Of a stretch of 64,000 nt of DNA, positions 6,379-63,398 are shown in pieces; position 1 is the first letter of the stretch; each line of letters opens with the position of its first letter. Origin of the DNA: a phage; sequence record PZ445524.1. One strand, 5' to 3'. The notes beneath the pieces are model-generated. The model was not told the origin of the DNA. It saw only the letters and a program-made list of their open reading frames with translations, and did not search any database. A program made the position numbers and the translations under genes.

Positions 6379-6462
6379 TTAAACTTTCCTTTATGTCGGA
6401 ATCACCGATATTCATATAATAAATCATAATTTCTCTTAAAACAAAAGGGCCGAAGCCCTTAT

Positions 6463-6657
6463 TTATTTGAATTGTGCAATTCTTTTCTCTAGACATTCAG
6501 CATAAGATTTCATTGAGATGAACTGTGAAAGTAGCAGTTCTTGCTCAACTGCGTTAACTGTTAGAAACTTTGTGCTTTCTAAAAATTTACTCAGTGCATT
6601 AATTTTGAGCATTAATTGATCATATTCTTCTTTTACTCGTGCTTGATAACCTAACAT
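6463..6657 (-). CDS. hypothetical protein (64 aa)
   Basis: ORF track; flanked by two GGGC-UUCG-GCCC hairpins. Confidence 0.5.
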   Translation of the reverse strand: MLGYQARVKEEYDQLMLKINALSKFLESTKFLTVNAVEQELLLSQFISMKSYAECLEKRIAQFK

Positions 6658-6689
6658 AATTTTCCTTAATATGATAAGGGCCGAAGCCC

Positions 6690-7628
6690 TTATTTAAATT
6701 GTTCAGTAACGTCTTCAACTACTTCGTATTGGCAGGTACGCATTTTAGCATCGTTGTAATCAATCGGAATTGATACTACATCACGCGGATGTACTTTAAC
6801 TTTTACAACTCGGCTAGTTGAACTGCCAAAGTGACGAATATAAGATTTAGAACACACATGCAGACCACGAGAACAAGTTTGTGTATCATCGTCATTCACA
6901 CGAGTACGTGGCATTTTAACTACTTTACCCGGACTGTTATCAAAGGTGTTTGAGTGACAGTCAAAGTAATTGCTGCGAACTACTTTCCAAGCATAGAAGT
7001 AACCATCTTCTGTAATTTCAATATCGTTTGCTACCAAGAAATCAAAGAGTCGAGATACCGCTTTTTGGCTTGGGTTTTCTAGCAGATTTTCCAAGAACGG
7101 AAAATAAAATTCAAAGTTTTCGCCTTTTTCCATCGAGTCAAGAATACGATCAACCAAACCAGACCGCAATTCAATATTTTGATAGAACAAGCTTCCACCT
7201 TCAATTCGAACATCGCCGGAAATATATTTTTCAACAGCACGACGAACATTAATTTTTTGTGCCGCTTCTTCCAACTTATCCGCTACAAGCAGATTAAGAA
7301 TTTCCTGGAAGTTTGAATGAGTATTAGGAGTTGCGTTATAAGTTACACCGTCAACAGTAATTGAAATGAATTTTTTAGATGCATTCCAAATAATGTCAGA
7401 TTTAGCAACTGGAGCAATAACTGCATCGCTATTAACTTTAACTGTAATATCACCGCTAATAGTAACTTTAGGGTGTTTAGCTTCTTCAGCATTTTTCAAA
7501 ACACGACGGATTGTGTCAACCGATACACCTTGCCAATCAGCCAATTCCTGTTGGGTATAATTACCACTTGAATACAGCTTAACAATTTCAGCTTGTTCGT
7601 TTTTGGTCAGGCATTTAATATTGTACAT
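6690..7628 (-). CDS. rIIB: rIIB protein
   Basis: 312 aa, T4 rIIB length; directly downstream of 725-aa rIIA. Confidence 0.9.
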   Translation of the reverse strand: MYNIKCLTKNEQAEIVKLYSSGNYTQQELADWQGVSVDTIRRVLKNAEEAKHPKVTISGDITVKVNSDAVIAPVAKSDIIWNASKKFISITVDGVTYNATPNTHSNFQEILNLLVADKLEEAAQKINVRRAVEKYISGDVRIEGGSLFYQNIELRSGLVDRILDSMEKGENFEFYFPFLENLLENPSQKAVSRLFDFLVANDIEITEDGYFYAWKVVRSNYFDCHSNTFDNSPGKVVKMPRTRVNDDDTQTCSRGLHVCSKSYIRHFGSSTSRVVKVKVHPRDVVSIPIDYNDAKMRTCQYEVVEDVTEQFK

Positions 7629-7639
7629 AATTTTCCTTA

Positions 7640-9817
7640 TTAGGCCGCAAGGGCCTTCATAGTTTTAGCGATTTGGGAAACTTCATCATCACTTAAAGAG
7701 TTGCGATAACCGATGAAGTCGGAAACAATACGGAATTTCTTGGTAAACTCAGCAACCATTTTATCACTGTTTTTTGAAGCATTATTTGATAATACATCAA
7801 AAAGATTAGTTACTGTCCAGATGTCATGACCGATGGTATCTTTTCCACCATTAAAATATACACCCTGTAATGAACTAACCATATTAGCAAGTCGTGTATA
7901 TTCTTCAGAAACTTCATCTACACTGAAGTACTTCATCATAAAATCTAACTCAGGATACTTGATAATTTTATCAATATATCGTTTAGCTGAACTTGAATAA
8001 CCTACATACTTATCATAATCTACATCATCAAAAGCATCTACATATAAATCACGCAAAGCTTCAAAAATACATTGGCACTGACCGAGTTCTTTTACCTTTT
8101 TCTGTAAAAGCGGACGAATAACATAAAATTCATTAATGCCAATAAGATTAGCCATACGAATCAAAATATTCATAGATGGATGACAAAGAGATGTAGTACC
8201 ATCCATAGAGAAAATATCAGAACGATGCATATACGCTACATAACCAGTAATTTCATCTGCTTCTGATGTGAGCGTAAATAATTCCTCTTTTTCCCAGCGC
8301 CCATCTTTAATTTCAAACTTAAATGCTGTAGCAGCTTTAGGACGAGGAGCTTTACTTTTAACTACCTTTGGAATATAGCTTTTAACTAAAGCTTCAATTT
8401 CTGACAAATAATGAATGTTAACTTCATCACTTTCAAACATCGCCATAATATCAGGAAGTAAATCAATCTGCGATTCTACTTCTGGATTAATAAACAGAAG
8501 ACGCTCATTGTGATGAATATTCAAAGTGTTATTAAATTCACTATCATCTAACGCATGCGCTAATCCACGAACAATATTAACACGATTTTTAATATTATCA
8601 ATAACGATATTAATTTTTGTTGTATTAATACCAAACAGACGATAACTTGATGCAACGGCTGAAGTTTCATGACTTTGCTTAATGCGCTTCAGTCGAGGGT
8701 CAAGATTTACTTCATACACAACTCCTGCATTGCATAACTTACTGTCAGGTTCAAACATGCTCTGCATCTTTTTATATGACAGATTTTTAGTCGTGAATTT
8801 GACTGAATTACTAATCATATAATCTCGAGCAGAATACCCCATCTTCATCAATTCACGATATGTGTGACGAGGAGATGTAGATTCTTTAAATCGTTTTACA
8901 TCTTCATTAAATGCTTTCTCACTGAGTTCTTTAACTCGTTCAATAATATTTTTACGAGTACGATCATCCAGTGAAAGAGCCTCGCGTGATGGAGCAATAT
9001 CCAATGAACCCATTGGAAACTTAATGTAATTCACTTCATTGCGAATGCTTAGCCAGTTACGGTCTCTAATAACACCATCGATAGGATAAACAATACCGCC
9101 GTAGATAGCATATAATCCACCACGATCAGGCCAGTATCTTTCTGGATTTACGCCGTAATAATCATCGAAATCCGGAAAATAATCAATTTCGCGGTCAAGA
9201 CCATTAATGATAGCCAAATCTTTGAATGGTCGCATGATATAAGAAACTTCATAAGCAAAGTTTCTAAAGTCTTTTTCTTCAACTGGAACTACGATTTCAA
9301 TACCAGTTTTATCATCTGGACCCATTTCTTTTACGAATGTAGGTTTAATTTGTGGACCATCGCCATCCATGTAAGCTACATAACCACGAATTTCACCTTT
9401 ATGATACGAAGTAATACTAAATGTATCAGTATAACTAAATGGAGATTTAGAACCTAAACCAAATCCGCCAATGAAATCGTTAGATTCAGCCTTAGATGAA
9501 CTGAAGTATGAATTATACAAACCAGGAGAATTATCATCACCCTGAATATCAAAATCACTCATACCCGGACCAAAATCTCGACAAACAAATCGTGGGTCTA
9601 AACGTCCAGGAACTTGTATGATAAATTTTTCAGGATTTCCATTAAGTGCATGGGCATCAATCATGTTGGTAATCAATTCACGGACTACTGCGCGAATCTT
9701 GTTTGTATACAAATCAGATGATAGAATTTTAAATACTTTAGGAGATGCTGTGATGCTAAATGCTTTTGATTTAGAACCATTACCAAGAATTGTTTCTTTT
9801 TCAGTGGTGATAATCAT
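7640..9817 (-). CDS. rIIA: rIIA protein
   Basis: 725 aa, T4 rIIA length; GHKL-ATPase-like N-terminus; followed by rIIB. Confidence 0.9.
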
Positions 9818-9827
9818 AATTTCCTCA

Positions 9828-10031
9828 TTAATTCATATTACGCTTAATAACTTCAGCAACTTCTAGTAATTCATCTTTAGTTGCGGTGTCGGATTGAATT
9901 TTATCTCTAATATCCTTAAAGCGGTTTTTAAATTCTTCGGCTTCTCCCATATCGAAAAAGCGTTGAATGATTCTATATTCTCGATGAACTGCTTTATCAA
10001 AAAGTTCTAAATTTACTCTATATGATTTCAT
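9828..10031 (-). CDS. hypothetical protein (67 aa), rIIA.1-like
   Basis: ORF track; between gene 60 and rIIA. Confidence 0.55.
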
Positions 10032-10056
10032 TTCAATATCCTCATTTGCCCAATTA

Positions 10057-10086
10057 ATTATACCACATCCTTGTGGTAAAGTAAAC
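10057..10086 (-). promoter_or_regulatory. early promoter (GTTTAC-N18-TATAAT)
   Basis: minus strand GTTTACTTTACCACAAGGATGTGGTATAAT; -35 overlaps gene 60 stop. Confidence 0.55.
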
Positions 10087-10430: not shown

Positions 10431-10480
10431 TCCAATAATCTCTTAATTATGAGGTATTTCTATAGATAGCCCGAAGGCTA
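10431..10480 (-). other. 60: 50-nt untranslated coding gap of gene 60 (translational bypass element)
   Basis: take-off GGA 10483-10481, stop UAG 10480-10478, UAGCC-UUCG-GGCUA hairpin 10481-10466, landing GGA 10433-10431. Confidence 0.9.
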
Positions 10481-10618
10481 TCCATCGTGATCTGCGTCTG
10501 TCATAATAGCGACATTCGCATAGTTCATTGAAGAGGATTTAATAGAACGACGAACATTGTTCTGCAATTTATATTTTTTCATATCAACGCTAGAAGAATC
10601 AATTTTTACAAATTTCAT
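10481..10618 (-). CDS. 60: DNA topoisomerase II small subunit gp60, segment 1 (codons 1-46)
   Basis: MKFVKIDSSSVDMKKYKLQNNVRRSIKSSSMNYANVAIMTDADHDG then UAG; GyrB-C-terminal-like TDADxDG motif. Confidence 0.9.
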
Positions 10619-12948: not shown

Positions 12949-13014
12949 TTATCCTCGTTTGGTTTCGGGAATATTATACTCCAATAATCATAAAGCTAAA
13001 GGCCCGAAGGCCTT

Positions 13015-13284
13015 TTATTTAAAACGAATAGTCGAATCCTTGAAGAATAGTCCAGAACATACTGTTCCTTCTACTTTCTGCCCAGTAGGTCCAATAGCAC
13101 GAAATCCAGTATGCTGGAAATCATTTTCAGAGCAACCGAACCAATTATATCCAGTGATTTCAATATTAGTAAAACCACTTGAAGACAAAACTTTGGTTGC
13201 ATTATCAGCATCAGTACATCCTATTAAAGACACTGCTAATACTAATGCTGCAATAGAACGATTAATATATTTCATAATTTTCAC
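13015..13284 (-). CDS. putative lipoprotein (89 aa)
   Basis: N-terminal signal peptide with lipobox LIGC. Confidence 0.6.
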   Translation of the reverse strand: MKIMKYINRSIAALVLAVSLIGCTDADNATKVLSSSGFTNIEITGYNWFGCSENDFQHTGFRAIGPTGQKVEGTVCSGLFFKDSTIRFK

Positions 13285-13652
13285 TTAAATTTAATGGCTT
13301 GAAGAAGACTAATAACTCTCAAGCGGCTTCTTTCATCTTTAACTGTAAAAGAAAGAGGGTCACCAGATTTCATAGTGATAGTGCATCCAAAATCAAAATT
13401 TTCGGGAACTTCTTCGAAGAAGTCAAATTCTTCAGCATAAATTAGAACATTACTCTGCATACTGTGAAGAATTTTTCCATTATTTCCAGACGCTGTACTA
13501 ATCATCGTAACATTATGACCTTTCATATCTTCAACGATAAATTCGCTTGTAGATATTACAGCATTAATAGAACCATTCCTATAAATAGCAGACATTAGAT
13601 ATTTCTTTTCTTCGCCTTCGCGAATACGATATTTCTTACCGATTTTAAACAT
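13281..13652 (-). CDS. hypothetical protein (123 aa)
   Basis: track ORF starts at GTG 13658; first ATG at 13652. Confidence 0.6.
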   Translation of the reverse strand: MFKIGKKYRIREGEEKKYLMSAIYRNGSINAVISTSEFIVEDMKGHNVTMISTASGNNGKILHSMQSNVLIYAEEFDFFEEVPENFDFGCTITMKSGDPLSFTVKDERSRLRVISLLQAIKFK

Positions 13653-14481: not shown

Positions 14482-14751
14482 TTAATTGAACATTGGAGCG
14501 ATACGTTTCAGAAGAGTAGCAGCACCTTTGGCGAATTTTACATCATGAAAAACAGTTTCTTCTTCCGTTACAACACGAACTTTAATGTTTTCACAATCCC
14601 AATTTTTACGAACAATCTTCAAAAGCTGCAGTAAATCTTTACATTCAGCAATATCGATAACACATCCACGAGAATCTTCCATTATCGCACGATAACCGTA
14701 AGCCATACCATAATCGTTGAAAGATTGCTCGATGATAATTAAGTTTTCCAT
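14482..14751 (-). CDS. hypothetical protein (89 aa)
   Basis: track ORF starts at TTG in leader; trimmed to ATG (MENLIIIEQ) after GGAG. Confidence 0.55.
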   Translation of the reverse strand: MENLIIIEQSFNDYGMAYGYRAIMEDSRGCVIDIAECKDLLQLLKIVRKNWDCENIKVRVVTEEETVFHDVKFAKGAATLLKRIAPMFN

Positions 14752-14775
14752 TTTATTCTCCAAGTTGTTTTCTGT

Positions 14776-14818
14776 ATCAGTAGTTGATATTGATATAGTA
14801 CCATAATCAACTACTGAT
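14776..14818. repeat. 13-bp perfect inverted repeat flanking a promoter -10 element
   Basis: atcagtagttgat (14776-14788) and atcaactactgat (14806-14818) are exact reverse complements, 17 bp apart. Confidence 0.8.
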
Positions 14819-14848
14819 GTATATAGTTTTATGAAAAAATTTTAAACT

Positions 14849-15346
14849 TTATGCACAGCGAGCTTTGCTATAGTGTTTAATCCAACTTTCAGGAATGACT
14901 TTGTATGTTCCTAAAAATACCGCGTTGTACAGCTTAACACCATCTTCTACCCACTGATCGGTAATGTATGCGCACATAGCACGAGTACGGTGTTTTTGAA
15001 CAACCCCTTCCTCATCTTCAGTAAATTCGAATTCATAAGGAGCAACGAACTTGATAGCTTGACCGAGTTTCCACTTAAAGTCTACACCTACATGCGAAGT
15101 ATCAATCGTTTCAATTCCTTTAGCAGGAACAGCTTTCAAAAACGCAGATTCAAGAAATTTCGCGCGAACATAACCAAACTGAGGTTTAGACTTTCCATCT
15201 TTAGGAATGATACGCACTTTTACTTCAGAATCTTCATCTTTAACGCCGTGTTTAAGCTGAATGCTTACAATTTCGACCAATTTTCCTGCTGCTTTAGAAC
15301 GGGATTTATCAGATACACGAGCAATTTCACCAATATTAATAATCAT
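14849..15346 (-). CDS. hypothetical protein (165 aa), MotB-region paralog A
   Basis: ORF track; C-terminal block CAYITDQWVEDGVKLYNAVFLG resembles that of 15423..15965. Confidence 0.6.
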   Translation of the reverse strand: MIINIGEIARVSDKSRSKAAGKLVEIVSIQLKHGVKDEDSEVKVRIIPKDGKSKPQFGYVRAKFLESAFLKAVPAKGIETIDTSHVGVDFKWKLGQAIKFVAPYEFEFTEDEEGVVQKHRTRAMCAYITDQWVEDGVKLYNAVFLGTYKVIPESWIKHYSKARCA

Positions 15347-15422
15347 AGTTATCTCTCACTTGTTAAAAAGATTTTATACTCCGCGGGACCATTATACTCT
15401 GGTCCCAAGAGTTTGTAAACTA

Positions 15423-15965
15423 TTAATTTAAAATAGCTACCACCGCACTACGAGGTACTACGCTAAAATCACCTGCATGAACAACGTTCAGAAGTTCAAC
15501 ACCATCTTCAATCCATTGGTCTGTTACCCAACCACAGACCGAAATAAATGGGGTCTTAATAGCTACTGCATGAGTCAAAAGGTCAGTAGGATCAACTTCT
15601 TTGAAGAGGATAAGCTCTGCTTCAAAGACTATAGTTTTAATTACTTCATCATTATCTAAGCGATGTGCTCGAATCACGTAAGCTTTATTCTTATCATACC
15701 AGTTACTTTTTGAAAAGCTTTTAACCACAAACTCGCCTTCACCAAAAGCATTAGTCAATGCTTTATAACCCAAATTTAGTTCAGTAGTTTTAATTTCAGT
15801 TTCAACCAGTTTGTAGGTTTTGCCAATTTCGATGGTCCGAGCAGTCATAAATGTTTCCTTAATTTCTAATGGTTTAACAAGAGTGCCGTACATGCTTGCT
15901 ATATCCATATCAAACGGTTTATCTACAGGATTCGGTGTGTATTCAGGATTATAATTAAATTTCAT
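15423..15965 (-). CDS. hypothetical protein (180 aa), MotB-region paralog B
   Basis: ORF track; C-terminal block CGWVTDQWIEDGVELLNVVHAG. Confidence 0.6.
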   Translation of the reverse strand: MKFNYNPEYTPNPVDKPFDMDIASMYGTLVKPLEIKETFMTARTIEIGKTYKLVETEIKTTELNLGYKALTNAFGEGEFVVKSFSKSNWYDKNKAYVIRAHRLDNDEVIKTIVFEAELILFKEVDPTDLLTHAVAIKTPFISVCGWVTDQWIEDGVELLNVVHAGDFSVVPRSAVVAILN

Positions 15966-15967
15966 AA

Positions 15968-16468
15968 TTATCTCATTTCAATAAAATCTACGAGTTCAGC
16001 ATGCGATTTGCGGAACATTACTTGATGCCCACCAATGATAACTTCATCTTCAGGAACTTCGTATACAGCGAGATAAAATCCTTTAGAAGATAATTCTTCC
16101 CGCTCTTCTCGTGTGAACCATCTCATCATATCATACTCACTAGCGAAAGCAAAATGATAAAGAGCTATAAACCATCCTGGAATATGATATTCTACTCCAA
16201 CATAATCTTTCTTGAACTTAGTATTAATTACTATATTAGCGTTTTTAACTAATAGTTTATCTTCGTGTGGTAAAGGAATTCTTTTATTATTATCGCTATG
16301 ATGCATAAAATTAGGTCTGTCATAACCTACGTGTAATAGCCACTCTTCGCTCCATGAATCTATTATACTCCTGTACGGCGTTATTTGAACACAAAGATTT
16401 CGACGTATTGTTATAGCGTCTTCATAATCAAGAATACTAAACGATGATTCAACACGATAAATTTTCAT
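15968..16468 (-). CDS. hypothetical protein (166 aa)
   Basis: ORF track; early promoter GTTTAC-N18-TATTAT upstream at about 16506-16535. Confidence 0.6.
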   Translation of the reverse strand: MKIYRVESSFSILDYEDAITIRRNLCVQITPYRSIIDSWSEEWLLHVGYDRPNFMHHSDNNKRIPLPHEDKLLVKNANIVINTKFKKDYVGVEYHIPGWFIALYHFAFASEYDMMRWFTREEREELSSKGFYLAVYEVPEDEVIIGGHQVMFRKSHAELVDFIEMR

Positions 16469-16532
16469 TTTTATTATCCTCAGTAGCTATGGTGTTATAA
16501 TACCATAACTAACCGAGGAAGTAAACAACTTT

Positions 16533-20819: not shown

Positions 20820-21439
20820 TCAACTACCTCAATATCATAAACTTTAAATGTTCCAAATGAATCGTGTAATTTTTCTTTTGAAATAGAAGTTATTCTATAC
20901 TTTCCAATTGGAATCATCCATTCTTGTTCACGCACAATCATCATTAAGTTATCAGTACGCTCTGAATCTAGCCCATCAGTATCTTCATACGTGTACTTGA
21001 ACTCAGTATTAGGAGAAGAAAGTATAATATCGCTGATATGGTCAGAATAATTAAAAGCTTTATCAGTTTTTAAGCGAAGTATTATTTTAGTAAAATATTC
21101 AGCATAAGAAAAAGAACATGCTGTGAGTAAACTAGTAGTAAATGAATCTACCCTGTTCGTTGAAAACACTTCTCCAACTTGTAAATCTTTAATAAGTTCT
21201 TCTGTTGATTTTGATATACCACGATATAACTGATAAGGCGATTTAGTTAAATGCTTTTTAATGATTTTATTCAATTGCCGATGAAGAGCTTCATTCTTTT
21301 TGGCTTCCATACATTGCCAAAGAACAGATTGCTCAAAGTCAGTAAATTTTTCACAGACTTTTTTATACATATCATATTGAAAATCAACGCTTTCAGCTTT
21401 TATAGATAACTGTTCAACATCTGCAAGATTAATAATCAT
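20816..21439 (-). CDS. modB: ADP-ribosyltransferase ModB
   Basis: 207 aa; paralog of ModA with LYRG and EQEWMIP motifs. Confidence 0.8.
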   Translation of the reverse strand: MIINLADVEQLSIKAESVDFQYDMYKKVCEKFTDFEQSVLWQCMEAKKNEALHRQLNKIIKKHLTKSPYQLYRGISKSTEELIKDLQVGEVFSTNRVDSFTTSLLTACSFSYAEYFTKIILRLKTDKAFNYSDHISDIILSSPNTEFKYTYEDTDGLDSERTDNLMMIVREQEWMIPIGKYRITSISKEKLHDSFGTFKVYDIEVVE

Positions 21440-21506
21440 GATAGCCTCCGTATACTTCAGAAGCTATCATATCATCGTTAGGAAGGAAAGTAAACAACTT
21501 TTTGAA

Positions 21507-23598: not shown

Positions 23599-23622
23599 AA
23601 AAAAGGACTCCCGAAGGAGTCC
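23599..23622 (-). terminator. rho-independent terminator downstream of soc
   Basis: minus strand GGACUCC-UUCG-GGAGUCC followed by UUUUUU. Confidence 0.65.
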
Positions 23623-23630
23623 TTGAATTA

Positions 23631-23898: not shown

Positions 23899-23906
23899 TA
23901 TTTATA
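23899..23906 (-). promoter_or_regulatory. late promoter TATAAATA (gp55-dependent) for soc
   Basis: exact TATAAATA on minus strand about 30 nt upstream of soc ATG; overlaps stop codon of the HNH gene. Confidence 0.7.
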
Positions 23907-24753
23907 AACCATTTTCAAATCTCTTTATCATGTTTATATAATTTTCGTCAGGATAACCTAGGCTAACTGCTAGCTTTCTAAAATTGACATATTTAGGTTT
24001 GTTGTTATTAATCCATAATTCTCTAAGCTCTTTTTCATAATTCCATTTAAGTTGATTTCTGCGTGCAATTTTGCTTAAAGTTTTTCCTTTAGCTTTTAAA
24101 GCTTTTTCAGATGACTGTTTTAATTTTTGAATATTTAAAACTTCTTCTATAGATAAATTATTTTCCTTTGAATATCTTATGCAAAAATCTTTTACTATGG
24201 CTATTAGGCAATTTTTGTGAGTACCTAAAATTTCTGGATTATTTTCTTCAACTAAAATTCCCCAATACCTTCGATAGCGAGGCATATCCCTTGAAATCCA
24301 GTCATTATACCAAAAATCAAAGTTGGAATACATGAAAGATTTTCTTTTACGAAGAGTATCTTGGTTTATCCATTGCTCACGTTTATCAGCCCATAACTTA
24401 ATAGTAAAGTCTTTCTCTAAGTCAGAAAGCTTCTTAAATTGTGAGCTATTTACTGAGGTCATTCTCTGGAATGCATTCAGCAATCCAAATCTTCCAGTTG
24501 AACATAAGAGATAGTGAACATATATGTGTTGATATATTGGGAGATATACTCTATTCCAAGGATATATTTTAAAATCACTATACTCAGGAAATGCACATTT
24601 AGGAAGTATATGATGGGCTTCTGTTTTAGATTTAATGTGAGTGTTTAACTTATACTTATCTATAATTTTTAAATACTCATCTAAAAGTTCCCATTGCGGG
24701 AACTTTTCTTTAAGAGCAGATTTGAAATTAATATCCATTATCTTGACGTTCAA
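23902..24753 (-). CDS. free-standing HNH homing endonuclease (283 aa)
   Basis: HNH-like motif EAHHILPKCAFPEY similar to MobA/MobD-type motifs; basic C-terminal region; between soc and 56. Confidence 0.7.
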   Translation of the reverse strand: MNVKIMDINFKSALKEKFPQWELLDEYLKIIDKYKLNTHIKSKTEAHHILPKCAFPEYSDFKIYPWNRVYLPIYQHIYVHYLLCSTGRFGLLNAFQRMTSVNSSQFKKLSDLEKDFTIKLWADKREQWINQDTLRKRKSFMYSNFDFWYNDWISRDMPRYRRYWGILVEENNPEILGTHKNCLIAIVKDFCIRYSKENNLSIEEVLNIQKLKQSSEKALKAKGKTLSKIARRNQLKWNYEKELRELWINNNKPKYVNFRKLAVSLGYPDENYINMIKRFENGL

Positions 24754-28133: not shown

Positions 28134-28191
28134 AACAATCTCCTCATTTAACCAACAAGACTACTATACCATAGTCTTGTCAGCTTGTAAA

Positions 28192-34240: not shown

Positions 34241-34253
34241 TAGATTTATTCTA

Positions 34254-36986: not shown

Positions 36987-37010
36987 CTTGATATATTATA
37001 CTCCAAATAA

Positions 37011-37024: not shown

Positions 37025-37028
37025 TTGC

Positions 37029-38923: not shown

Positions 38924-38957
38924 AATTTCCTCATTCAAGTTTTAGTGTAAATTATAA

Positions 38958-38971
38958 AGGGCCGAAGCCCT
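38958..38971 (-). promoter_or_regulatory. AGGGC-UUCG-GCCCU hairpin between 45 and 44
   Basis: seen on minus-strand RNA immediately after gene 45 stop. Confidence 0.55.
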
Positions 38972-38974
38972 CTA

Positions 38975-40304: not shown

Positions 40305-40359
40305 GTTTTTCCTCCATAGAGATTATACTCTAATAAATTAAAGCATAATCTCTTATAAA

Positions 40360-42042
40360 TTAAACCATTACAGTAAATCGACCAACTTTCTTCATTTGAA
40401 GATGCTGACCATATTCTTGCGGGTCATGGTCTTTATGCGAAATTATAAAAACATTAGTGTTTTTCATTGAATTTATAATATTAGCTACACCTTTAATACC
40501 TTCGGCATCAAATGACCCATCAAACACTTCATCGAGTATTAATGTACTAATACTAACACCAGATACAGTAGAAGCAATATCACGCCAAGTAAATAAAAGA
40601 GCAATATCAATTCTTGCTTTTTCACCTTCACTAAATGAAGCATAACTAAAATCTTCGCGACCACGGGATTTAATTGTCTCATTAAATTCTTCATCTAATG
40701 TAAACACATAATCCGCTTCCATTATTTTAAGATAATGGTTAATCTGCTTATTAAATAATGGAATGTACTTTTTAATAATAGCACCTTTAATACCAGAATC
40801 TTTGAGCATATCAGTCAAAATTCCTCGGTGGTATTTTTCCATTACTAAATTAGTTTTTGTCTTAACAATTTTATCAAGTTCTTCTTGAAGCAGTGCTATT
40901 TCATCAGCATGGTCAATAAACTCAGAAGATGCTTTTTCTATAGCCGCTTTAACCTTTTTAGCTTTATCTACTGCTGCGATCAGAGATTGCTTTTTATTGC
41001 GAATATCATTTGCCAACGACTGCTGGGTTTTAATATTATCTCGGTATTCATCAACAAGAACTTTTAAATTATCACGATGTGTTGAAAGCTGTTCAAACGA
41101 ATGCGTACATTCAGAAACTTTATCTTTAATTTTAGAAACAACTTTATCACCGGAACTCAATTGCGACAAACAGGTTGGACATAATCCACCTTCGTGATAC
41201 ATATTAATGACTTTATTATATGAGTCAATTTTTGATTTAATTAAAACTGCTTCTTGACCGATTTTATTAAATGCATCAGTCGGGTCTTCATCTAAAACAA
41301 TATTAACTAATCTTTCATTAGCTTCTTCTATTTCCGATTTTAGCGTTCTAGCTTCTTTTGCCAAATCATCATACATATTTTGCAGACGAGTAAGGTTGTC
41401 ACCCGTTAATTTTTTCTGGCGTTCAACGTTATCATTATATATTTTAATTTGTTGGATAATACTATCTTTTTTAACATCAAGCACTTGGTTTTGTGAATTT
41501 AATTCGCGTATTAGTGCTTTATTAAGCTTATCCATTTCAGCTAATGTTCCTACCTCGAGCAGGTCTTCCACAAGCTTTCTTCGCGCAGGGGTCGACAAAC
41601 CCATGAAAGGGGTATACCCTGCTGTACCAAGGACAACAATCTGCTTGAAACTGGCATATGACATTCCGATAAGCTGTTCAAATTCTGCTTGGAAATCTTT
41701 ACTGCTGGCAGATTCATTAAGACGTGTACCGTTAACGGTGATTTCGAAAACGTTTGGTTTTTGTCCTCTTTTGATATAATACTTTTTCTCATCATATTCC
41801 ATCCACAGTTCAACTAAAAGTTCTTTCTTATTTGTGCTGTTTATTAATTGACCTTTCTTTACATCGCGAAATGGCTTGCCAAAAAGCCCAAATGTGATGG
41901 CTTCTAGCATAGTAGACTTACCACCGCCATTTCGTCCAGTAATAAGAGTTTTTTGAACCTTATCTAATTGAATGTCAACTCCATTTTGACCAACTGACAT
42001 TATATTTTTATATTTTACTCTATTAAGTTTAAAATTCTTCAC
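40360..42042 (-). CDS. 46: recombination nuclease subunit (Rad50/SbcC-like ATPase)
   Basis: 560 aa; Walker A GRNGGGKST, coiled coil, CPTC zinc hook. Confidence 0.95.
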   Translation of the reverse strand: MKNFKLNRVKYKNIMSVGQNGVDIQLDKVQKTLITGRNGGGKSTMLEAITFGLFGKPFRDVKKGQLINSTNKKELLVELWMEYDEKKYYIKRGQKPNVFEITVNGTRLNESASSKDFQAEFEQLIGMSYASFKQIVVLGTAGYTPFMGLSTPARRKLVEDLLEVGTLAEMDKLNKALIRELNSQNQVLDVKKDSIIQQIKIYNDNVERQKKLTGDNLTRLQNMYDDLAKEARTLKSEIEEANERLVNIVLDEDPTDAFNKIGQEAVLIKSKIDSYNKVINMYHEGGLCPTCLSQLSSGDKVVSKIKDKVSECTHSFEQLSTHRDNLKVLVDEYRDNIKTQQSLANDIRNKKQSLIAAVDKAKKVKAAIEKASSEFIDHADEIALLQEELDKIVKTKTNLVMEKYHRGILTDMLKDSGIKGAIIKKYIPLFNKQINHYLKIMEADYVFTLDEEFNETIKSRGREDFSYASFSEGEKARIDIALLFTWRDIASTVSGVSISTLILDEVFDGSFDAEGIKGVANIINSMKNTNVFIISHKDHDPQEYGQHLQMKKVGRFTVMV

Positions 42043-43642: not shown

Positions 43643-43667
43643 TATATCAAACTCCGTATAAAGCTAA

Positions 43668-43681
43668 AGGGCCGAAGCCCT
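43668..43681 (-). promoter_or_regulatory. AGGGC-UUCG-GCCCU hairpin at 3' end of alpha-gt
   Basis: seen in sequence. Confidence 0.55.
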
Positions 43682-44884
43682 TTATTTTGTAATAATGTCA
43701 AACTGTTCTTTAAAGCAGAAGCTTGAATCTTGATGCTGATACAAAAATTCATATGCTTTTTCTCGCTCACGGTCATAAAGAGCTCGGTCAGATGACAGTT
43801 CTTTAATACGTTCAAATGTTGATTCCATGTCATTTTCATCAAACCAAATGATACCGCTATCATGCGAGGTCAAAGGAGTATTATCAACACGGAATTTTAA
43901 ATTTTCGCCAGTAGATTTCCAGAAAACAGGAATTGTACCGCAAGCACCTAATTCAAGATGAGTATATTCGAGTGAGCGTTGTAAGTATTTCTGGTTAAGT
44001 TTACTCAACTGATATCCAAAGCCAGATTTACTCATTCGTTCAAGCATTTCACTATTAATATAACAATCTAGGATTTGTGCCGGTTGATTCGGCGCGAGAT
44101 TCATTTTATCAATCTCACGATTACCGTAATATTCATACGGAATACCTTTTTCCTTAATTGCAATAAAAGCAGGGGAACGTTCAAGACCTTCCATTACAGT
44201 GGATTTACCAGAAGGTTTTAAGAATTTTTCGTGAAAATCAAACATCTGATAAAAACCTTTCCATGTAGTCGTACGACCAATCCAACGGTTGATGTTCATG
44301 TTAATTTCAGAAACATCTTTCCAATAAGTTGACCGAACCTTCGCAATATCCATAGGAGGCTGAAAGTTATATACTGTCGGTGCTTCTTCAATATCATCAA
44401 ACAGAGAAACAGTTTCTGGATACCATTCTTTCATCAGAACTTTATTAAAATCACCATTATCAGAATGGCTAAAAATAACATCAGCTCGACGAACAGTTTC
44501 TTCTAATCCCAAATTTCGACGCAAAGAAAGAACAGAATGATCATGCTGATAAACTACAACACGAATAGAAGGTTTAATATTATCTAAAAGTTTTTTATAG
44601 TTATTAATCGTGGCTTCTTGAACGGAAGTAGCAGGAACAGAATTAATAATTAGAATATCACAATCATTAATCAGTTTAAGTGCTTTATCGTATTCTTTAG
44701 CTAAAATAACTGGAATTGAAAATGATTTGTGGTCATGAGAACTTGTACGAGTAAATGATTTATCTTTAGCATAAACCAAAGTTACTTCATGACCATTTTT
44801 AATAAACCAATCACGTTGCTCGAGTGAGAATTTTGTTACACCACAACCTTCAAGACCCCGAGCCAGAAAAATGCATACTTTCAT
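43682..44884 (-). CDS. agt: DNA alpha-glucosyltransferase
   Basis: 400 aa, T4 alpha-gt length; position between 55 and 47. Confidence 0.9.
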   Translation of the reverse strand: MKVCIFLARGLEGCGVTKFSLEQRDWFIKNGHEVTLVYAKDKSFTRTSSHDHKSFSIPVILAKEYDKALKLINDCDILIINSVPATSVQEATINNYKKLLDNIKPSIRVVVYQHDHSVLSLRRNLGLEETVRRADVIFSHSDNGDFNKVLMKEWYPETVSLFDDIEEAPTVYNFQPPMDIAKVRSTYWKDVSEINMNINRWIGRTTTWKGFYQMFDFHEKFLKPSGKSTVMEGLERSPAFIAIKEKGIPYEYYGNREIDKMNLAPNQPAQILDCYINSEMLERMSKSGFGYQLSKLNQKYLQRSLEYTHLELGACGTIPVFWKSTGENLKFRVDNTPLTSHDSGIIWFDENDMESTFERIKELSSDRALYDREREKAYEFLYQHQDSSFCFKEQFDIITK

Positions 44885-44932: not shown

Positions 44933-45128
44933 AATATAGGAGCCGAAGCTCCTATCCACATAATACGCCATACAGAGGCTCGTTAGAACTTTTAAATTTT
45001 ATGCGCTTATATGTTATAGTTCCTTCTGCTTTAGCTTTATCATGAGACTCTTTAAAGCGTCTCATCATTTCCTCTTTAGAGGAACGAATTTTATTATAAT
45101 CTATTTCAGAAGTCTGGGTGTTCATCTT

Positions 45129-46379: not shown

Positions 46380-46457
46380 TTTCACCTCTTAGCTCAATTC
46401 ATAGATCTATTATATCATAATATTTGAAGATCTATCTTAAAGCATAGAGGATATCAG

Positions 46458-46727
46458 TTATCTAAGTAAGCAGTATGCTTGGAACACTTTCTCCATCATC
46501 TTTTTAAATTCATGAATATCTATATAATGACTAGTTAAATCAGCATGATATAAAAAGTCTAAAAACTTTTCATGTGTGCTAACATATTCACTTTCATTTA
46601 ATTCAGAAACATGACTTTCCCAATATCCAACACCAGTCTTATTTGGGAAAAATGAAATTTTCATGTATTGGTCAACATAGAAAATGCCATAATTTTCAAT
46701 AGTAATAGAAATATTAATAAATTTCAT
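46458..46727 (-). CDS. hypothetical protein (89 aa)
   Basis: ORF track. Confidence 0.55.
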   Translation of the reverse strand: MKFINISITIENYGIFYVDQYMKISFFPNKTGVGYWESHVSELNESEYVSTHEKFLDFLYHADLTSHYIDIHEFKKMMEKVFQAYCLLR

Positions 46728-47303: not shown

Positions 47304-47320
47304 AAAAAGGGCCGAAGCCC
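47304..47320 (-). terminator. GGGC-UUCG-GCCC hairpin + U5 terminator
   Basis: directly after stop of 47321..47521. Confidence 0.6.
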
Positions 47321-47521
47321 TTAGCTAAACTTTTTGGCACCCTTCCAGCCTTCGTACATCATTGCGGCTGATATTAATATTGCTCCTGAGCAACTTGAAT
47401 ATTTGTGGTTCCAAAACCAATTCAGAAAAACTTCGTCATCAATACCTTGGGCTATCATATTTTCAAAGAACTGACGACGAGCTTCGGCAATTCGCTGCGA
47501 TAATTTAGATTCAGGATTCAT
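47321..47521 (-). CDS. hypothetical protein (66 aa)
   Basis: ORF track. Confidence 0.55.
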   Translation of the reverse strand: MNPESKLSQRIAEARRQFFENMIAQGIDDEVFLNWFWNHKYSSCSGAILISAAMMYEGWKGAKKFS

Positions 47522-47954: not shown

Positions 47955-48254
47955 GGAGTTTAATTTCCTTAGCAACTGAACTAAATACAGCACGATCACA
48001 AACCATGCGTTTGTTCCATTTAATCACAGTATAATGAACATCTAGATCATCGACTGCTGTAACAATAACGATATGTCCGTTAACACGATAATACTGATCA
48101 ATTTTAATCTCTTTATCAACCATATCAATTCCTCAAAGGCAATTCATGTGTTAATAATACCACAGTTTGAGCTCGTTGTAAACAACTTTGTGAAAATTAT
48201 TTTAGGGAATGATAAGAAGGGAACGATAGCTTAGAATGGTAATATACAGAATGT

Positions 48255-52327: not shown

Positions 52328-52537
52328 TTAACCCCGAAGCTTATTAAGTTCTTCATAATCAATCCAGGATTCTAATCCTGATGGCAAATCAGATTCAATT
52401 TCCCAAAGAAGTTCTTCAATTTTATGAAGACGATCTAATTCTTCAGCTGGAATAGTAACCATTGATGGAGTTCTTGATACACTAATATCGTAAATCATAT
52501 TTACCCCAGTTTGACCATGCAATCGCCGTATTTCCAC
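52328..52537 (-). CDS. hypothetical protein (69 aa)
   Basis: ORF track. Confidence 0.5.
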   Translation of the reverse strand: MEIRRLHGQTGVNMIYDISVSRTPSMVTIPAEELDRLHKIEELLWEIESDLPSGLESWIDYEELNKLRG

Positions 52538-52716
52538 TTAGAAATAGACTTTTCGCCATTAGAATAATAAACTTCGAGTTTAGCACGATTATTTTTAATT
52601 TGAATAACCTTGGCTGTCATCAAAGTTCCATATCCATAGTAAACTGCAACTTCATCACCTACATATACCGCGCTTCCGCGGTAATCATGGATATAATCAG
52701 TTCCTTCGAGCATCAT
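52501..52716 (-). CDS. hypothetical protein (71 aa)
   Basis: ORF track. Confidence 0.5.
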   Translation of the reverse strand: MMLEGTDYIHDYRGSAVYVGDEVAVYYGYGTLMTAKVIQIKNNRAKLEVYYSNGEKSISKWKYGDCMVKLG

Positions 52717-54478: not shown

Positions 54479-55480
54479 TTACTTAATTAACTGTAAAGCT
54501 TGTTCCAGACGATCAAGACGATTAACAGATTCTTCCCAAATCCTTTTAGCCTGCTCATATTCTTTCTGCGCTTTATTAGAAATTTCTAGAACTTCTTTAT
54601 AAGCTTTTTCTAGTGCAATAACTTCTGGACGAATTTCTATCGGTTCAGGTGAATCATCAAGACATTCCATTAGTTCCTCAAGGGTAGTTTCTTCTTTAGG
54701 AGTATTCACAATTTCATCACATTTTTGTTGATAAATTTCTTTATCAGTAGGTGAGTACGCGCACTTTACTTCACGAAGACTAATTACAATTTTATATCCT
54801 TCCCAACCGCATATATTCTTAAAAGGATAAGTATGAATATTTTCTACTGTTTCCATACAAAGTAATGCGGTCTCTAATTGACGAGTTATAGTGCTAGCAA
54901 TTGAGAAAAATTTATTAATGTTCTTTTGGTTAGTTTCTGGTGTAAAAAATCCATAATTCACAAAAATAGATACTTTATTTTTATCAAGTTCATATTCTTT
55001 TATGATAATCATATCAGAAGCCAAAGGATGAATTTGACGATAATCGCCATAACATAATTTAGAAGCTGATTTTAGAATCTGTCCTTTGAAAAGTCTGAAA
55101 TTACTAATCCAACGACGAGTAAAAATATTCTCAGGGTCTTCTTTATTATTAAGATGATAAGAATTAACATCACCGAACCAATTATATCCTACTACATCTT
55201 TGGTTCGTTTAATTTCTTTCCCAAAATTACCAAGAATATCCCGATTAACCAAATATGAAAGAAGACGAGACTCTTTAAAGGTTTTCTTGATAAGATCTTT
55301 ATCTACACGGCTAGAAATTTTACGAATTTCATGAATAAATTTAGTAGAAGAAACAATACCTGCATCAACACTATTGAGCCATTGATTGATAATAGAAAGA
55401 ACGCTATTTTGGCCAAACATCGGTATAGCTTTATCATCAATAACGCTATTGAATGATTTGATATATTCGTTACGAGTCAT
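54479..55480 (-). CDS. hypothetical protein, coiled-coil-tailed family member 2 (333 aa)
   Basis: track ORF trimmed (it ran through an early promoter) to ATG after GGAG; C-terminal coiled-coil-like tail. Confidence 0.65.
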   Translation of the reverse strand: MTRNEYIKSFNSVIDDKAIPMFGQNSVLSIINQWLNSVDAGIVSSTKFIHEIRKISSRVDKDLIKKTFKESRLLSYLVNRDILGNFGKEIKRTKDVVGYNWFGDVNSYHLNNKEDPENIFTRRWISNFRLFKGQILKSASKLCYGDYRQIHPLASDMIIIKEYELDKNKVSIFVNYGFFTPETNQKNINKFFSIASTITRQLETALLCMETVENIHTYPFKNICGWEGYKIVISLREVKCAYSPTDKEIYQQKCDEIVNTPKEETTLEELMECLDDSPEPIEIRPEVIALEKAYKEVLEISNKAQKEYEQAKRIWEESVNRLDRLEQALQLIK

Positions 55481-58457: not shown

Positions 58458-58485
58458 TTTGTGTTCCTCCGTAGTTGATAGTTGT

Positions 58486-58515
58486 ATAGTACCACAGAGG
58501 AACAGTCTTGTAAAC
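58486..58515 (-). promoter_or_regulatory. early promoter with conserved leader
   Basis: GTTTAC-N18-TACTATACAACTATCAACTACGGAGGAACAC. Confidence 0.55.
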
Positions 58516-58517
58516 CA

Positions 58518-58832
58518 CTAAAAGAAACTTCTTTCACAATTTTTTCCACTGAACCACGCGCTCACTGCTTTCTTAGTCTCAGGAGCAGTGTTATCCATAA
58601 ACCATTCAAAGGCAGCCTTTTTATGATTCTGGAGGGCTTCTCGGGCTTTAATCTGCTCACGGTCTATTAACACTAACATATGAGCCTTTCTTGTCACCAG
58701 GGGCTTCTTATGATTTTTTGAATACTCCCAATCATTTGTCCATCGCATCGTTGTTGCGAATTGAAGTACAGCTTCTTTAATCTTAGTTTCGTAAATTTCA
58801 CGAGCCTTTGAGTATAACATCATTACCTCCAT
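58518..58832 (-). CDS. hypothetical protein (104 aa)
   Basis: ORF track. Confidence 0.55.
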   Translation of the reverse strand: MEVMMLYSKAREIYETKIKEAVLQFATTMRWTNDWEYSKNHKKPLVTRKAHMLVLIDREQIKAREALQNHKKAAFEWFMDNTAPETKKAVSAWFSGKNCERSFF

Positions 58833-59890: not shown

Positions 59891-59924
59891 TTTATTCTCC
59901 AAATCCGTATCAGTTGATAGTTGT

Positions 59925-59954
59925 ATAGTACCATAAAGCTTTATGCTTGTAAAC
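59925..59954 (-). promoter_or_regulatory. early promoter with conserved leader
   Basis: GTTTAC-N18-TACTATACAACTATCAACTGATACGGATTTGGAG. Confidence 0.55.
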
Positions 59955-59978
59955 AGTTTTGTGAAAAATTTTTGAAAT

Positions 59979-60002
59979 AAAAAAGGGAGCCCGAAGGCTC
60001 CC
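59979..60002 (-). terminator. rho-independent terminator (UUCG hairpin + U-run)
   Basis: GGGAGCC-UUCG-GGCUCCC then UUUUUU, right after stop at 60005. Confidence 0.65.
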
Positions 60003-60004
60003 TA

Positions 60005-62410: not shown

Positions 62411-62740
62411 AATTACATACTCCTTTGAATAATATCAATAATGTTGTTCACCAGATTATAAGTAAACATTGGGTAATTATATTGAATCATCACATACACA
62501 ACAAACAAAATTTTCATTCTCTTCTCCTTGACAGTTGACAAGATTACTATACCATAACCTTGCCAACTTGTAAACCATTAAATGACGTTTTCAATAAAAT
62601 TCTGAAGCTTTGTGTGAGCATCAACCATGATTTTCATTTCTTCCTTTGCGAAAGCTGTACCTCTTTCCCGAGAAGAACATTCATAGTCAGAAACTGCATT
62701 AGCATATTCTTCAATTAGCTTCATTAAAAACATCTGCTTT

Positions 62741-62935
62741 TCAGTTTTCATTATTCCACCTAATCATTTCAAGATATTGAACTAACTTAGCTTTAGATTT
62801 ATCCAAATCCTTTTTAGCTGCTTCTATACCGTCGTATGAATATCCTTCACAATGCTCAACTGCTAATTGGTATGAATCTATTTCAATATCACGTGCTAAT
62901 TTAATGATTTTTTCAAACTGTTCACGTGTTAGCAT
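62741..62935 (-). CDS. hypothetical protein (64 aa)
   Basis: ORF track. Confidence 0.5.
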   Translation of the reverse strand: MLTREQFEKIIKLARDIEIDSYQLAVEHCEGYSYDGIEAAKKDLDKSKAKLVQYLEMIRWNNEN

Positions 62936-62937
62936 AA

Positions 62938-63156
62938 TTAAACTCTCGTATTATGATCGATAATTTCATCAAGAAACATATCTAACGCTTCTAAAGCATT
63001 ATCAACTTTAGCTTCAAGTTCTTCAATACCTGATAAGGCAAAGTTAATGCGTTCCTCATCTGCTTTACGAATTAAAGCTACCAATTCCTTAATTTTATCA
63101 GCTTGTTCGATACTAATCATTATTCCACCACATATGAAAGAGAGAATATTGCACAC
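62938..63156 (-). CDS. hypothetical protein (72 aa)
   Basis: ORF track. Confidence 0.5.
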
Positions 63157-63308
63157 GCCATGTGAGTTGCAACTTCATCACACATATTATAACGTTTCTT
63201 AAGAAGTTCTACAAGTTCTTCACTAGTAACTTCATCCATGTCGACGAAAAAATCACCATTAATGATGACGTAGATATTTCCTTCTTGATTGAGTGCTTCA
63301 ATTTTCAT
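63120..63308 (-). CDS. hypothetical protein (62 aa)
   Basis: track ORF trimmed to ATG (MKIEALNQ) after AGGAG, downstream of promoter. Confidence 0.5.
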
Positions 63309-63336
63309 GATGTTCTCCTCTTTATCCGATGGTTGT

Positions 63337-63366
63337 ATAGTACCACAGCTCAAACGGAAAGTAAAC
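63337..63366 (-). promoter_or_regulatory. early promoter
   Basis: GTTTAC-N18-TACTATACAACCATCGGATAAAGAGGAG. Confidence 0.55.
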
Positions 63367-63376
63367 CGGTAAAATG

Positions 63377-63398
63377 AAAAAAGTCTCCCGAAGGAGAC
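63377..63398 (-). terminator. rho-independent terminator (UUCG hairpin + U-run)
   Basis: GUCUCC-UUCG-GGAGAC then UUUUUU after stop at 63404. Confidence 0.6.

Follow-up and report, generated by a model that had tools for sequence, protein, structure and literature searches.

The 64,000-nucleotide (nt) stretch of phage DNA considered here (sequence record PZ445524.1; the whole of this stretch is referred to as the window) encodes, on its minus strand, a set of short RNA hairpins in which a UUCG loop is closed by a C-G pair, found predominantly between adjacent genes. A 4-kb piece of the window matched some 600 T4-type phage records, with the top matches showing ~98% identity and T4 itself showing 96.8%. 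The whole window is colinear with positions 161922–168920 and then 1–59403 of the T4T genome (HM137666), with most blocks being 92–99% identical. By sequence, the window is thus assigned to Tequatrovirus, as a relative of phage T4. Nearly all annotated genes of the corresponding T4 region lie on the minus strand, which is therefore the sense strand. Gene context was taken from the open reading frames of the window together with the T4T annotation. The colinear alignment with T4T also revealed the T4 segA, mobB, mobC and I-TevII segments to be absent from the window, and both mobA and the gene 60 bypass cassette to be present. In what follows, each hairpin is designated by its first position in the window (Table 1).

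Stems were extended outward from every CTTCGG on both strands, with G-U pairs being permitted. This revealed 14 uninterrupted C(UUCG)G hairpins with stems of 6–10 base pairs (bp), all on the minus strand and hence all in the sense orientation. The UUCG loop is closed by a C-G pair in each. By comparison, the 14 plus-strand copies of CTTCGG have stems of just 1–3 bp, while the five remaining minus-strand copies have stems of no more than 4 bp and resemble background. A first-pass annotation, prepared from the letters alone, had described about 12 such hairpins punctuating the minus-strand transcript and one more within stp. All 13 sites so named were found to be real, on the minus strand and where they had been placed, with the full stems reaching 1–4 nt further on each side; the tally was, however, incomplete, as the hairpin at 29909, within gene 40, had not been listed.

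The earlier statement that the density of these hairpins is far above chance was borne out. In 200 dinucleotide shuffles, minus-strand C(UUCG)G hairpins whose stems reached 6 bp or more appeared with a mean of 0.07 and a maximum of 1, as compared to the 14 observed. CTTCGG, counted on both strands, appeared 33 times in the window, as compared to 12.7 ± 3.2 in shuffles. Minus-strand tetraloop hairpins with six or more Watson–Crick pairs number 60; UUCG is the loop in 13, and every other loop is seen at most twice. In each of the 14 cases, the minimum-free-energy fold of the surrounding 46–54 nt contains the hairpin, at predicted energies of −10.7 to −17.7 kcal/mol, values that already count the tabulated tetraloop bonus. 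Could the set nonetheless be a product of chance, of base composition or of coding constraint? Two of the 14 hairpins do lie in coding sequence, and the other five minus-strand and the 14 plus-strand copies of CTTCGG, with little or no stem (4 bp at most), look like background. Still, with 14 hairpins observed against 0.07 expected, with 11 of the 14 being intercistronic and with compensating stem changes in related phages, the probability of this explanation is negligible, and for the intercistronic set it was refuted by the shuffles, by conservation of the junctions and by covariation.

Examination of gene context placed 11 of the 14 hairpins between cistrons and two within coding sequence (stp and gene 40), with the remaining hairpin being the take-off stem-loop of gene 60. 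Each of the 11 intercistronic hairpins starts between −4 and +6 nt from the end of the upstream stop codon and finishes 16–93 nt short of the next start codon. In several instances (6674, 43665 and 44936), the stop codon is itself part of the stem. By position, the intercistronic hairpins are elements of the 3′ end of the upstream cistron.

The comparison with T4 that the first-pass annotation had proposed yielded a positional orthologue in T4T for all 14 hairpins. Across the complete T4T genome, 24 CUUCGG hairpins with stems of at least 5 bp were found, 23 of them in sense orientation relative to the local gene, with the lone antisense case being a weak 5-bp stem inside segE. The four T4T hairpins found on the plus strand all lie just after plus-strand genes, namely, 23, uvsW, 35 and 37. 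Because plus-strand genes carry plus-strand hairpins, orientation tracks transcription, rather than the replication strand or a DNA word. The same polarity was seen in related phages, where 5–7 sense hairpins and no antisense hairpins were found per 20 kb.

Conservation was considered across 96 T4-like phage loci from IMG/VR, anchored on gp45, gp39 or nrdC.11. At each junction, the homologue of the upstream protein was located and the best hairpin in the 100 nt following its stop codon was recorded. At rIIB/denB.1, a UUCG hairpin is present in 10 of 11 distinct relatives (rIIB identity 54–99%) and a UUUG loop in the other, on stems that vary (UAAGGGC, GGGGAC, GGAGGC, GGGGC, AGGAGCC, AAGGGAC and AAAGGGCC). 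At 45/44, all 12 distinct relatives (gp45 identity 53–100%) have a tetraloop hairpin, with loops of UUCG (eight), UACG (two), GAAA (one) and UUUG (one). A hairpin follows soc in all 13 distinct relatives, with UUCG in 10 and UCCG in two. At regA/43, loops of UUCG, GAAA, UCCG, CGUG and UUAC sit on differing stems, and most relatives have a hairpin after rI.-1, with loops including UUCG, GAAA and UUAG. A UUCG hairpin was found in nine of 17 distinct relatives at 39.1/39 and in about 10 at the nrdC.11 junction. In the most distant loci (nrdC.11 identity of ~45% or less), UUCG hairpins vanish.

When all loci were pooled, a strong tetraloop hairpin was found in 314 of 2,772 distinct post-stop segments, with UUCG as the loop in 132 (42%), followed by GAAA (21), UCCG (seven), UACG (five) and UUUG (five). 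In the control, comprising 3,000 random 89-nt sense segments, such a hairpin was found in 89 (3%), 29 of which had UUCG loops. As in the window, the 130 distinct intercistronic UUCG hairpins of the relatives hug the upstream stop codon, with the median start lying 7 nt past its first base (interquartile range 2–9) and the median end 52 nt short of the next ATG.

Forty distinct junction hairpins were next aligned, with the loop as anchor. Here, 97% of cells pair and double-sided changes affect six of the seven stem pairs, although this count is partly circular, each row having been chosen as the top hairpin in the vicinity of a stop codon. In 38 of the 40, the loop is closed by C-G. Two GAAA-loop hairpins that had been misplaced by MAFFT were removed so as to obtain an ungapped alignment, such that loop exchange is under-represented. 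The junction hairpins are, accordingly, kept with compensating stem changes, and the absence of conservation in related phages that the first-pass annotation had named as part of what would refute its proposal was not what was seen. Strand specificity, together with these compensating changes, argues that the hairpins function as RNA helices. As judged from sequence comparison, the hairpins are real, non-random, strand-specific, orthologous to those of T4 and selected as RNA helices. Moreover, UUCG is replaced at the same junctions by UACG, GAAA, UCCG or UUUG, which points to stability, and not a DNA word, as the selected trait. UACG and GAAA are members of other recognized classes of stable tetraloops (UNCG and GNRA, respectively). 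The selected property thus appears to be thermodynamic stability.

Among close relatives, natural one-step variants were also noted, in which UUUG replaces the UUCG loop or U-G replaces the closing C-G pair (L020, rIIB junction; L007, alpha-gt; L015, 45/44; L009, a-gt.2). Such variants could serve as ready-made tests of the importance of loop stability.

The sequences immediately following each hairpin were read by hand, since a generic promoter and terminator scan was uninformative. In that scan, which covered 1–20 kb, promoter-like sites were no commoner than in shuffles and, of the hairpins in this part, only 6445 was called terminator-like on the sense strand. No match at the gathering score was returned across the whole window by the covariance models of Rfam 15, which holds no model for these hairpins. 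A U-run befitting an intrinsic terminator was defined as at least five U in the 8 nt directly after a GC-rich stem-loop. Such a run follows 6445, 23603, 59984 and 63382, with 47307 being marginal; no such run follows the other nine of the 14 (3777, 6674, 10462, 12998, 29909, 37009, 38954, 43665 and 44936).

Different promoter-like sequences accompany hairpins with and without a U-run. Some 15–30 nt downstream of 23603, 59984 and 63382 lies a promoter-like sequence comprising −35, TGn and −10 elements, i.e., TTTAC(T/A), 17 nt and TGG-TA(T/C)(A/T)AT, in agreement with the description of T4 early promoters as UP/−35/TGn/−10 promoters. The other 11 hairpins are not followed by such an early-type promoter. 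The cassettes after 59984 and 63382 belong to a family of 70–90 nt repeats (see below). At 12998, 43665 and 44936, the 3′ arm instead runs directly into (U/A)UU(A/U)GCUUUA, with TA(T/A)AAT lying a further 12 nt on. The former fits the MotA-box consensus, (a/t)(a/t)TGCTT(t/c)a, centered at −30. In T4T, the mapped T4 middle promoters P39 (5349), P47 (36576), PmobB (38682) and P43 (29933) lie directly downstream of hairpins at 5370, 36594, 38702 and 29938, respectively. Four hairpins lacking a terminator-grade U-run (12998, 37009, 43665 and 44936) hence abut mapped MotA-dependent middle promoters.

Two further observations were made in these regions. The stretches following the 39.1/39 and regA/43 hairpins (12960–12997 and 36985–37008, minus strand) share a near-identical TT(A/T)TTGGAGTATAATAT, and GGAG, the RegB cleavage motif, is found 5–15 nt past 12998, 37009 and 43665. 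This shared stretch and motif may reflect promoter consensus, duplication of a hairpin–promoter module or a RegB site beside a protective hairpin. The idea that the GCUUCG loop itself serves as the MotA box of P43 or in the 55.3/55.2 region was rejected, as the spacing to the −10 element is 14–15 nt, rather than ~12–13 nt.

Proximity to promoters raises the possibility that the conserved entities are DNA-level elements, be they cruciforms, sites bound by protein, a portion of the MotA box or short patches of homology driving modular recombination as in PeSL cassettes, with the RNA hairpin being a by-product. Four hairpins lie against, or overlap, the MotA boxes of mapped middle promoters, three come ahead of early-promoter cassettes, a core, AGGGCUUCGGCCCU, is common to five hairpins, and the stem-loops of the PeSL cassettes of phages RB49 and phi1 are recombination sites (PMC2839356). 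Such a reading is nonetheless very improbable, given that orientation matches transcription in 23 of 24 T4T cases, plus-strand genes included, that orthologous loops are swapped for the unrelated GAAA and UACG on other stems, and that the 45/44 hairpin has no promoter nearby. G-U pairs inside stems also outnumber the antisense equivalent, A-C, by four to none, small numbers that carry little weight. Finally, apart from the stem and the stop-codon context, little is common to the copies, for which reason an origin as mobile repeats was likewise rejected. The overlap of hairpins with promoters is nonetheless a physical reality, and a part in recombination akin to that of PeSL cassettes may be played.

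That the hairpins fall into two sets, namely, probable terminators with U-runs and others between co-transcribed cistrons, had been proposed in the first-pass annotation, and the related phages upheld this division. The U-run is kept across relatives at soc (clear in 10 of the 13), nrdC.11 and rI.-1 (in most relatives), yet is absent throughout at 45/44 and regA/43. The U-run of denB.1 is seen in the window and close relatives only, while at rIIB/denB.1 and 39.1/39, relatives have U-runs that the window lacks. These last two junctions, together with the U-runs found at 75 of the 130 intercistronic UUCG hairpins of relatives, could be taken to mean that all intercistronic hairpins, including those without a U-run, act as terminators or attenuators, whether alone or with T4-modified RNA polymerase or Rho, halting some of the polymerases at each gene end. 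In addition, RB49 and phi1 stem-loops lying beside promoters cut downstream expression as strongly as does rrnB T1 (PMC2839356). The consistent lack of a U-run at 45/44 and regA/43 in every relative speaks against this, as does the standard model of intrinsic termination, which requires a U-tract. At 45/44, moreover, neither a U-run nor a promoter-like sequence was read in the flank ahead of the gene 44 start, and a table of mapped T4 middle promoters, a source that does not cover early promoters, lists none from P45 to gene 44. Because no mapped middle promoter separates genes 45 and 44, gene 44 is probably transcribed by read-through past the 45/44 hairpin, such that polymerase would pass this hairpin efficiently. 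Termination at all of the intercistronic hairpins is, as such, improbable.

The explanation that best accounts for these observations, and one considered very likely, is that the hairpins are of the C(UUCG)G type known from T-even phage mRNA, acting as gene-end punctuation in three ways. The hairpins at 6445, 23603, 59984, 63382 and perhaps 47307 would serve as intrinsic terminators, each bringing a transcription unit to an end; where a predicted strong early promoter follows (23603, 59984 and 63382), one early unit would be closed ahead of the next. Those at 6674, 12998, 37009, 38954, 43665 and 44936, lacking a terminator-grade U-run, would be read through and would provide the upstream cistron with a fast-folding and very stable 3′ cap. 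Following downstream cleavage, this cap may block 3′-to-5′ exonucleases, enzymes listed as acting on T4 mRNA in a review of post-transcriptional control in this phage (PMC3014915), and may also act as an insulator, so that the AU-rich initiation region of the following gene does not pair with sequence upstream. Being found at MotA-dependent middle promoters, four of the six would mark the boundary between the upstream transcript and the new start. The hairpin at 10462 is assigned a separate role, in gene 60 bypassing. Of the stability or processing roles raised in the first-pass annotation for hairpins between co-transcribed cistrons, the stabilizing role is thus retained as a prediction, while for processing no evidence was found.

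Tight spacing to the stop codon, seen both in the window and in the 130 hairpins of relatives, invites consideration of the ribosome. A terminating ribosome may melt the hairpin, with translation thereby gating termination or capping, or else the hairpin may affect release or re-initiation at the next cistron. The stop codons found within the stems of 6674, 43665 and 44936 fit such a scenario, as does gene 60, where a stop-adjacent CUUCGG stem is able to act inside the ribosome. In one elaboration, to which only a low probability is assigned, the hairpins would be translation-gated gene-end switches and each hairpin–promoter pair a compact insulating module. With good translation of the upstream gene, a ribosome occupying the stop codon would hold the hairpin open and so permit read-through, while uncoupled or untranslated RNA would be terminated by hairpins with U-runs or capped against exonucleases by those without. 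Hairpin–promoter modules might also be swapped by recombination, as with PeSL cassettes. On the other hand, the spacing may simply reflect genome compaction and protection of the complete coding sequence, the orthologous 45/44 hairpin in L010–L012 sits 22–36 nt past the stop codon, and no experimental data for such a role were found. A ribosome-linked function is, then, also unlikely, albeit somewhat less so than termination at every intercistronic hairpin.

In the case of the gene 60 hairpin, which the first-pass annotation had counted among the punctuating elements, the assignment had to be changed. Its 5′ arm contains the take-off codon, GGA, and the stop codon, UAG, and the tip reads CC-UUCG-GG. 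The sequence runs GAU GGA UAG CCUUCGGGCUAUC ... AUUAUU GGA, with the gap to the landing GGA, counted by hand, being 50 nt. Translation of gene 60 halts at ...DADHDG*, and a bypass region is annotated at 2803–2852 in T4T. All elements of the gene 60 bypass being present in the window, the hairpin at 10462 serves as the stem-loop for take-off in translational bypassing, which is its established role. This identity covers only one of the 14 hairpins. The two hairpins embedded in coding sequence (3777 and 29909) may have a function or may persist through constraint on the proteins.

Several points weigh against punctuation by these hairpins as proposed here. When single hairpins were folded, z-scores relative to shuffles were modest (−1.3 to −4.3). 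Some relatives have no hairpin or another element at 39.1/39, nrdC.11 and 55.3/55.2, which implies that the hairpins are dispensable or replaceable. The partial circularity of the covariation count was noted above, and the stp and gene 40 hairpins could owe their conservation to the encoded proteins. The terminator and stabilizer roles are read from sequence, with effects on termination, read-through and half-life being predictions, and a literature search returned no usable map of T4 transcript 3′ ends or RNA-seq terminator atlas. Lastly, in those parts of the review of T4 post-transcriptional control drawn upon here (PMC3014915), a stabilizing tetraloop is mentioned for the gene 60 stem-loop only, such that the stabilizer role has little backing from direct experiment.

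Other intergenic elements were also noted (Table 1). A second family of intergenic hairpins has stems of 8–16 bp and loops containing a −10-like TATA(A/G)T, with loop sequences including GGUAUA, AAGUAUA, GAGUAUAA and AUUAUAAC. In relatives, hairpins of this type replace the UUCG hairpin at 55.3/55.2 and nrdC.11/nrdC.10. The 70–90 nt repeats mentioned above number at least 10 in the window, with 60–85% identity to the reference copies. Because they contain GTTTAC, ~17 nt, TGGTA(C/T)TATA and a conserved leader reaching to a Shine–Dalgarno sequence, these repeats are probably early-promoter cassettes. Four copies lie directly after terminator hairpins. Strong terminator-like hairpins lacking UUCG were found at two positions. 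In addition, segments with no T4T match longer than 200 bp in the colinear alignment were found at approximately 5295–5736, 13280–13650, 14543–14744, 15535–15980, 23906–24728, 46452–46713 and 52329–52712. Together with the missing T4 genes, these are the usual mosaic of insertions and deletions of homing endonucleases and small open reading frames.

Table 1. Hairpins and repeats of the window, and plus-strand C(UUCG)G hairpins of T4T. Distances are in nt; U-run is as defined in the text.
Feature	Position	Strand	Stem (bp)	Context	Following sequence and further details	T4T orthologue
C(UUCG)G hairpin	3777-3792	minus	6	within stp 3′ end; encodes final Stp residues ...GVFGRQ*	no U-run; UGA stop 2 nt and next gene start 12 nt downstream; kept in L031 (ndd 62% identical)	165524-165539
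C(UUCG)G hairpin	6445-6460	minus	6	denB.1/denB junction, 2 nt past denB.1 stop	UUGUUUUA; terminator-like	167738-167755
C(UUCG)G hairpin	6674-6693	minus	8	rIIB/denB.1 junction, overlaps rIIB stop codon	no U-run in the window, though most relatives have one	167967-167984
C(UUCG)G hairpin	10462-10485	minus	10	gene 60	bypass take-off stem-loop	
C(UUCG)G hairpin	12998-13015	minus	7	39.1/39 junction, abuts 39.1 stop	3′ arm continues into MotA-box-like UUUAGCUUUA, TATAAT 12 nt on; matches mapped T4 P39	5370-5387
C(UUCG)G hairpin	23603-23624	minus	9	soc/mrh.2 junction, 6 nt past soc stop	UUUUCAUUU, then early-type promoter-like TTTACT, 17 nt, TGG-TATAAT	15289-15310
C(UUCG)G hairpin	29909-29928	minus	8	inside gene 40 (codons S-P-S-S-E-G-E), 37 nt past uvsX stop	UCCCCCUC-UUCG-GAGGGGGA; −16.7 kcal/mol; no U-run; relatives retain CCCCCUC/GAGGGGG stem with UCAG loop	22315-22334
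C(UUCG)G hairpin	37009-37026	minus	7	regA/43 junction, 2 nt past regA stop	no U-run; TATAAT 8 nt downstream, adjoins mapped T4 middle promoter P43; then gene 43 operator and start	29938-29955
C(UUCG)G hairpin	38954-38975	minus	9 (one G-U)	45/44 junction, abuts gene 45 stop	no U-run	31883-31904
C(UUCG)G hairpin	43665-43684	minus	8	alpha-gt/47.1 junction, alpha-gt UAA is stem base	3′ arm continues into UUUAGCUUUA, TATAAT 12 nt on; matches mapped T4 P47; UUUG variant in L007	36594-36613
C(UUCG)G hairpin	44936-44955	minus	8	a-gt.2/alpha-gt junction, overlaps a-gt.2 stop	AUUGCUUUA, 12 nt, TAAAAT; matches mapped T4 PmobB/Palpha-gt.1; other stem and U-run in L012 (77% identity)	38702-38721
C(UUCG)G hairpin	47307-47322	minus	6	55.3/55.2 junction, overlaps 55.3 stop	UUUGG, marginal U-run; some relatives have a hairpin with −10-like loop instead	40810-40825
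C(UUCG)G hairpin	59984-60003	minus	8	nrdC.11/nrdC.10 junction, 1 nt past nrdC.11 stop	UUUUUAUUU and early-promoter-like cassette TTTACA, 17 nt, TGG-TACTAT	55401-55420
C(UUCG)G hairpin	63382-63399	minus	7	rI.-1/mobD.5 junction, 4 nt past rI.-1 stop	UUUUUCAUUUU and early-promoter-like cassette TTTACT, 17 nt, TGG-TACTAT	58785-58802
−10-loop hairpin	62533-62568	minus				
−10-loop hairpin	40318-40353	minus				
−10-loop hairpin	28150-28185	minus				
−10-loop hairpin	21437-21471	minus				
−10-loop hairpin	16484-16511	minus				
−10-loop hairpin	15384-15407	minus				
Repeat copy	1713-1790					
Repeat copy	5022-5099					
Repeat copy	5746-5823					
Repeat copy	14768-14845					
Repeat copy	34078-34155					
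Repeat copy	48127-48204					
Repeat copy	58459-58536					
Repeat copy	59898-59975					
Repeat copy	62513-62583					
Repeat copy	63304-63374					
Strong terminator-like hairpin without UUCG	1802-1823	minus			AGGGAGAGC-CGAG-GCUCUCCCU, then U7, early-promoter cassette	
Strong terminator-like hairpin without UUCG	34224-34241	minus		after gene 43	AGGGACC-UCCA-GGUCCCU, U4; early-promoter cassette next	
T4T C(UUCG)G hairpin	106515-106534 (HM137666)	plus		few nt past gene		
T4T C(UUCG)G hairpin	114195-114210 (HM137666)	plus		few nt past gene		
T4T C(UUCG)G hairpin	155822-155843 (HM137666)	plus		few nt past gene		
T4T C(UUCG)G hairpin	159639-159656 (HM137666)	plus		few nt past gene		

The hairpins of the window are members of the extra-stable C(UUCG)G family of T-even phage mRNA, a real, conserved and already known family, since the copies found here are orthologous to the published CUUCGG family of T4. 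That family was reportedly presented by Tuerk and colleagues in 1988 (PNAS 85:1364), and the UUCG tetraloop is said to have been first recognized through T4 hairpins, later becoming a standard model of RNA stability. In the passages of later papers that touch on the subject, CUUCGG hairpins are described as being especially abundant in T4, mostly intergenic and stops for reverse transcriptase (PMC8948821), and CUUCGG as recurring among T4 hairpins serving as terminators or stabilizers of RNA (bioRxiv 10.1101/2022.08.31.505936). The link to prior work is drawn from later papers citing Tuerk 1988 and/or Miller 2003. Shared with the T4 hairpins are the loop, the closing pair, intercistronic placement on the sense strand and genome lineage. 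The features expected of the UNCG/T4 family, namely, a C-G-closed UUCG loop, a sense-strand stem of 2–8 or more pairs, a predominance of intercistronic sites and orthology to T4, were all found. Nothing essential differs, although this phage lacks mobB, such that 44936 directly precedes alpha-gt, and a few flanks are different.

Finding this family once more in a T4 relative adds nothing to what is known of UUCG stability. What is added is comparative detail, namely, stem compensation down to 53% protein identity, exchange of loops, tightness of spacing to the stop codon, and the pairing of U-run hairpins with early promoters and of hairpins without U-runs with middle promoters. Such detail is useful for annotating the boundaries of transcription units in T4-like genomes and helps in designing experiments on the role of the non-terminator hairpins.

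Hairpins not followed by a U-run can be compared to REP/BIME elements, such as that at malE-malF in E. coli, which are 3′ stem-loop stabilizers of mRNA in polycistronic operons. REP elements are imperfect palindromes of ~35 nt with their own consensus and are bound by protein. Common to both are a stable intercistronic hairpin lacking a U-run, a position just past the stop codon and a proposed block to exonucleases. The hairpins considered here differ in having minimal stems of 6–10 bp capped by a tetraloop, and in that a stabilizing effect at these sites is predicted only.

Like intrinsic terminators of E. coli and its phages, the hairpins at 6445, 23603, 59984 and 63382 have a short loop on a GC-rich stem that leads straight into a U-run, and are placed past a stop codon and ahead of a new promoter, with 47307 again being marginal. 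By contrast, nine of the 14 lack a terminator-grade U-run, and the loops are strongly biased to UUCG.

Finally, the PeSL (promoter-early stem-loop) cassettes of RB49 and phi1 are terminator-plus-promoter modules that combine a GC-rich stem-loop with a strong sigma-70-type early promoter (−35, −10 and an AT-rich upstream region), placed from a stop codon to the next start, and serve as sites of recombination (Arbiol et al., 2010; PMC2839356). The separate set of window hairpins with −10-like loops resembles these promoter-plus-stem-loop cassettes. At 23603, 59984 and 63382, the C(UUCG)G hairpins likewise place an intergenic GC-rich stem-loop ahead of a putative early promoter.

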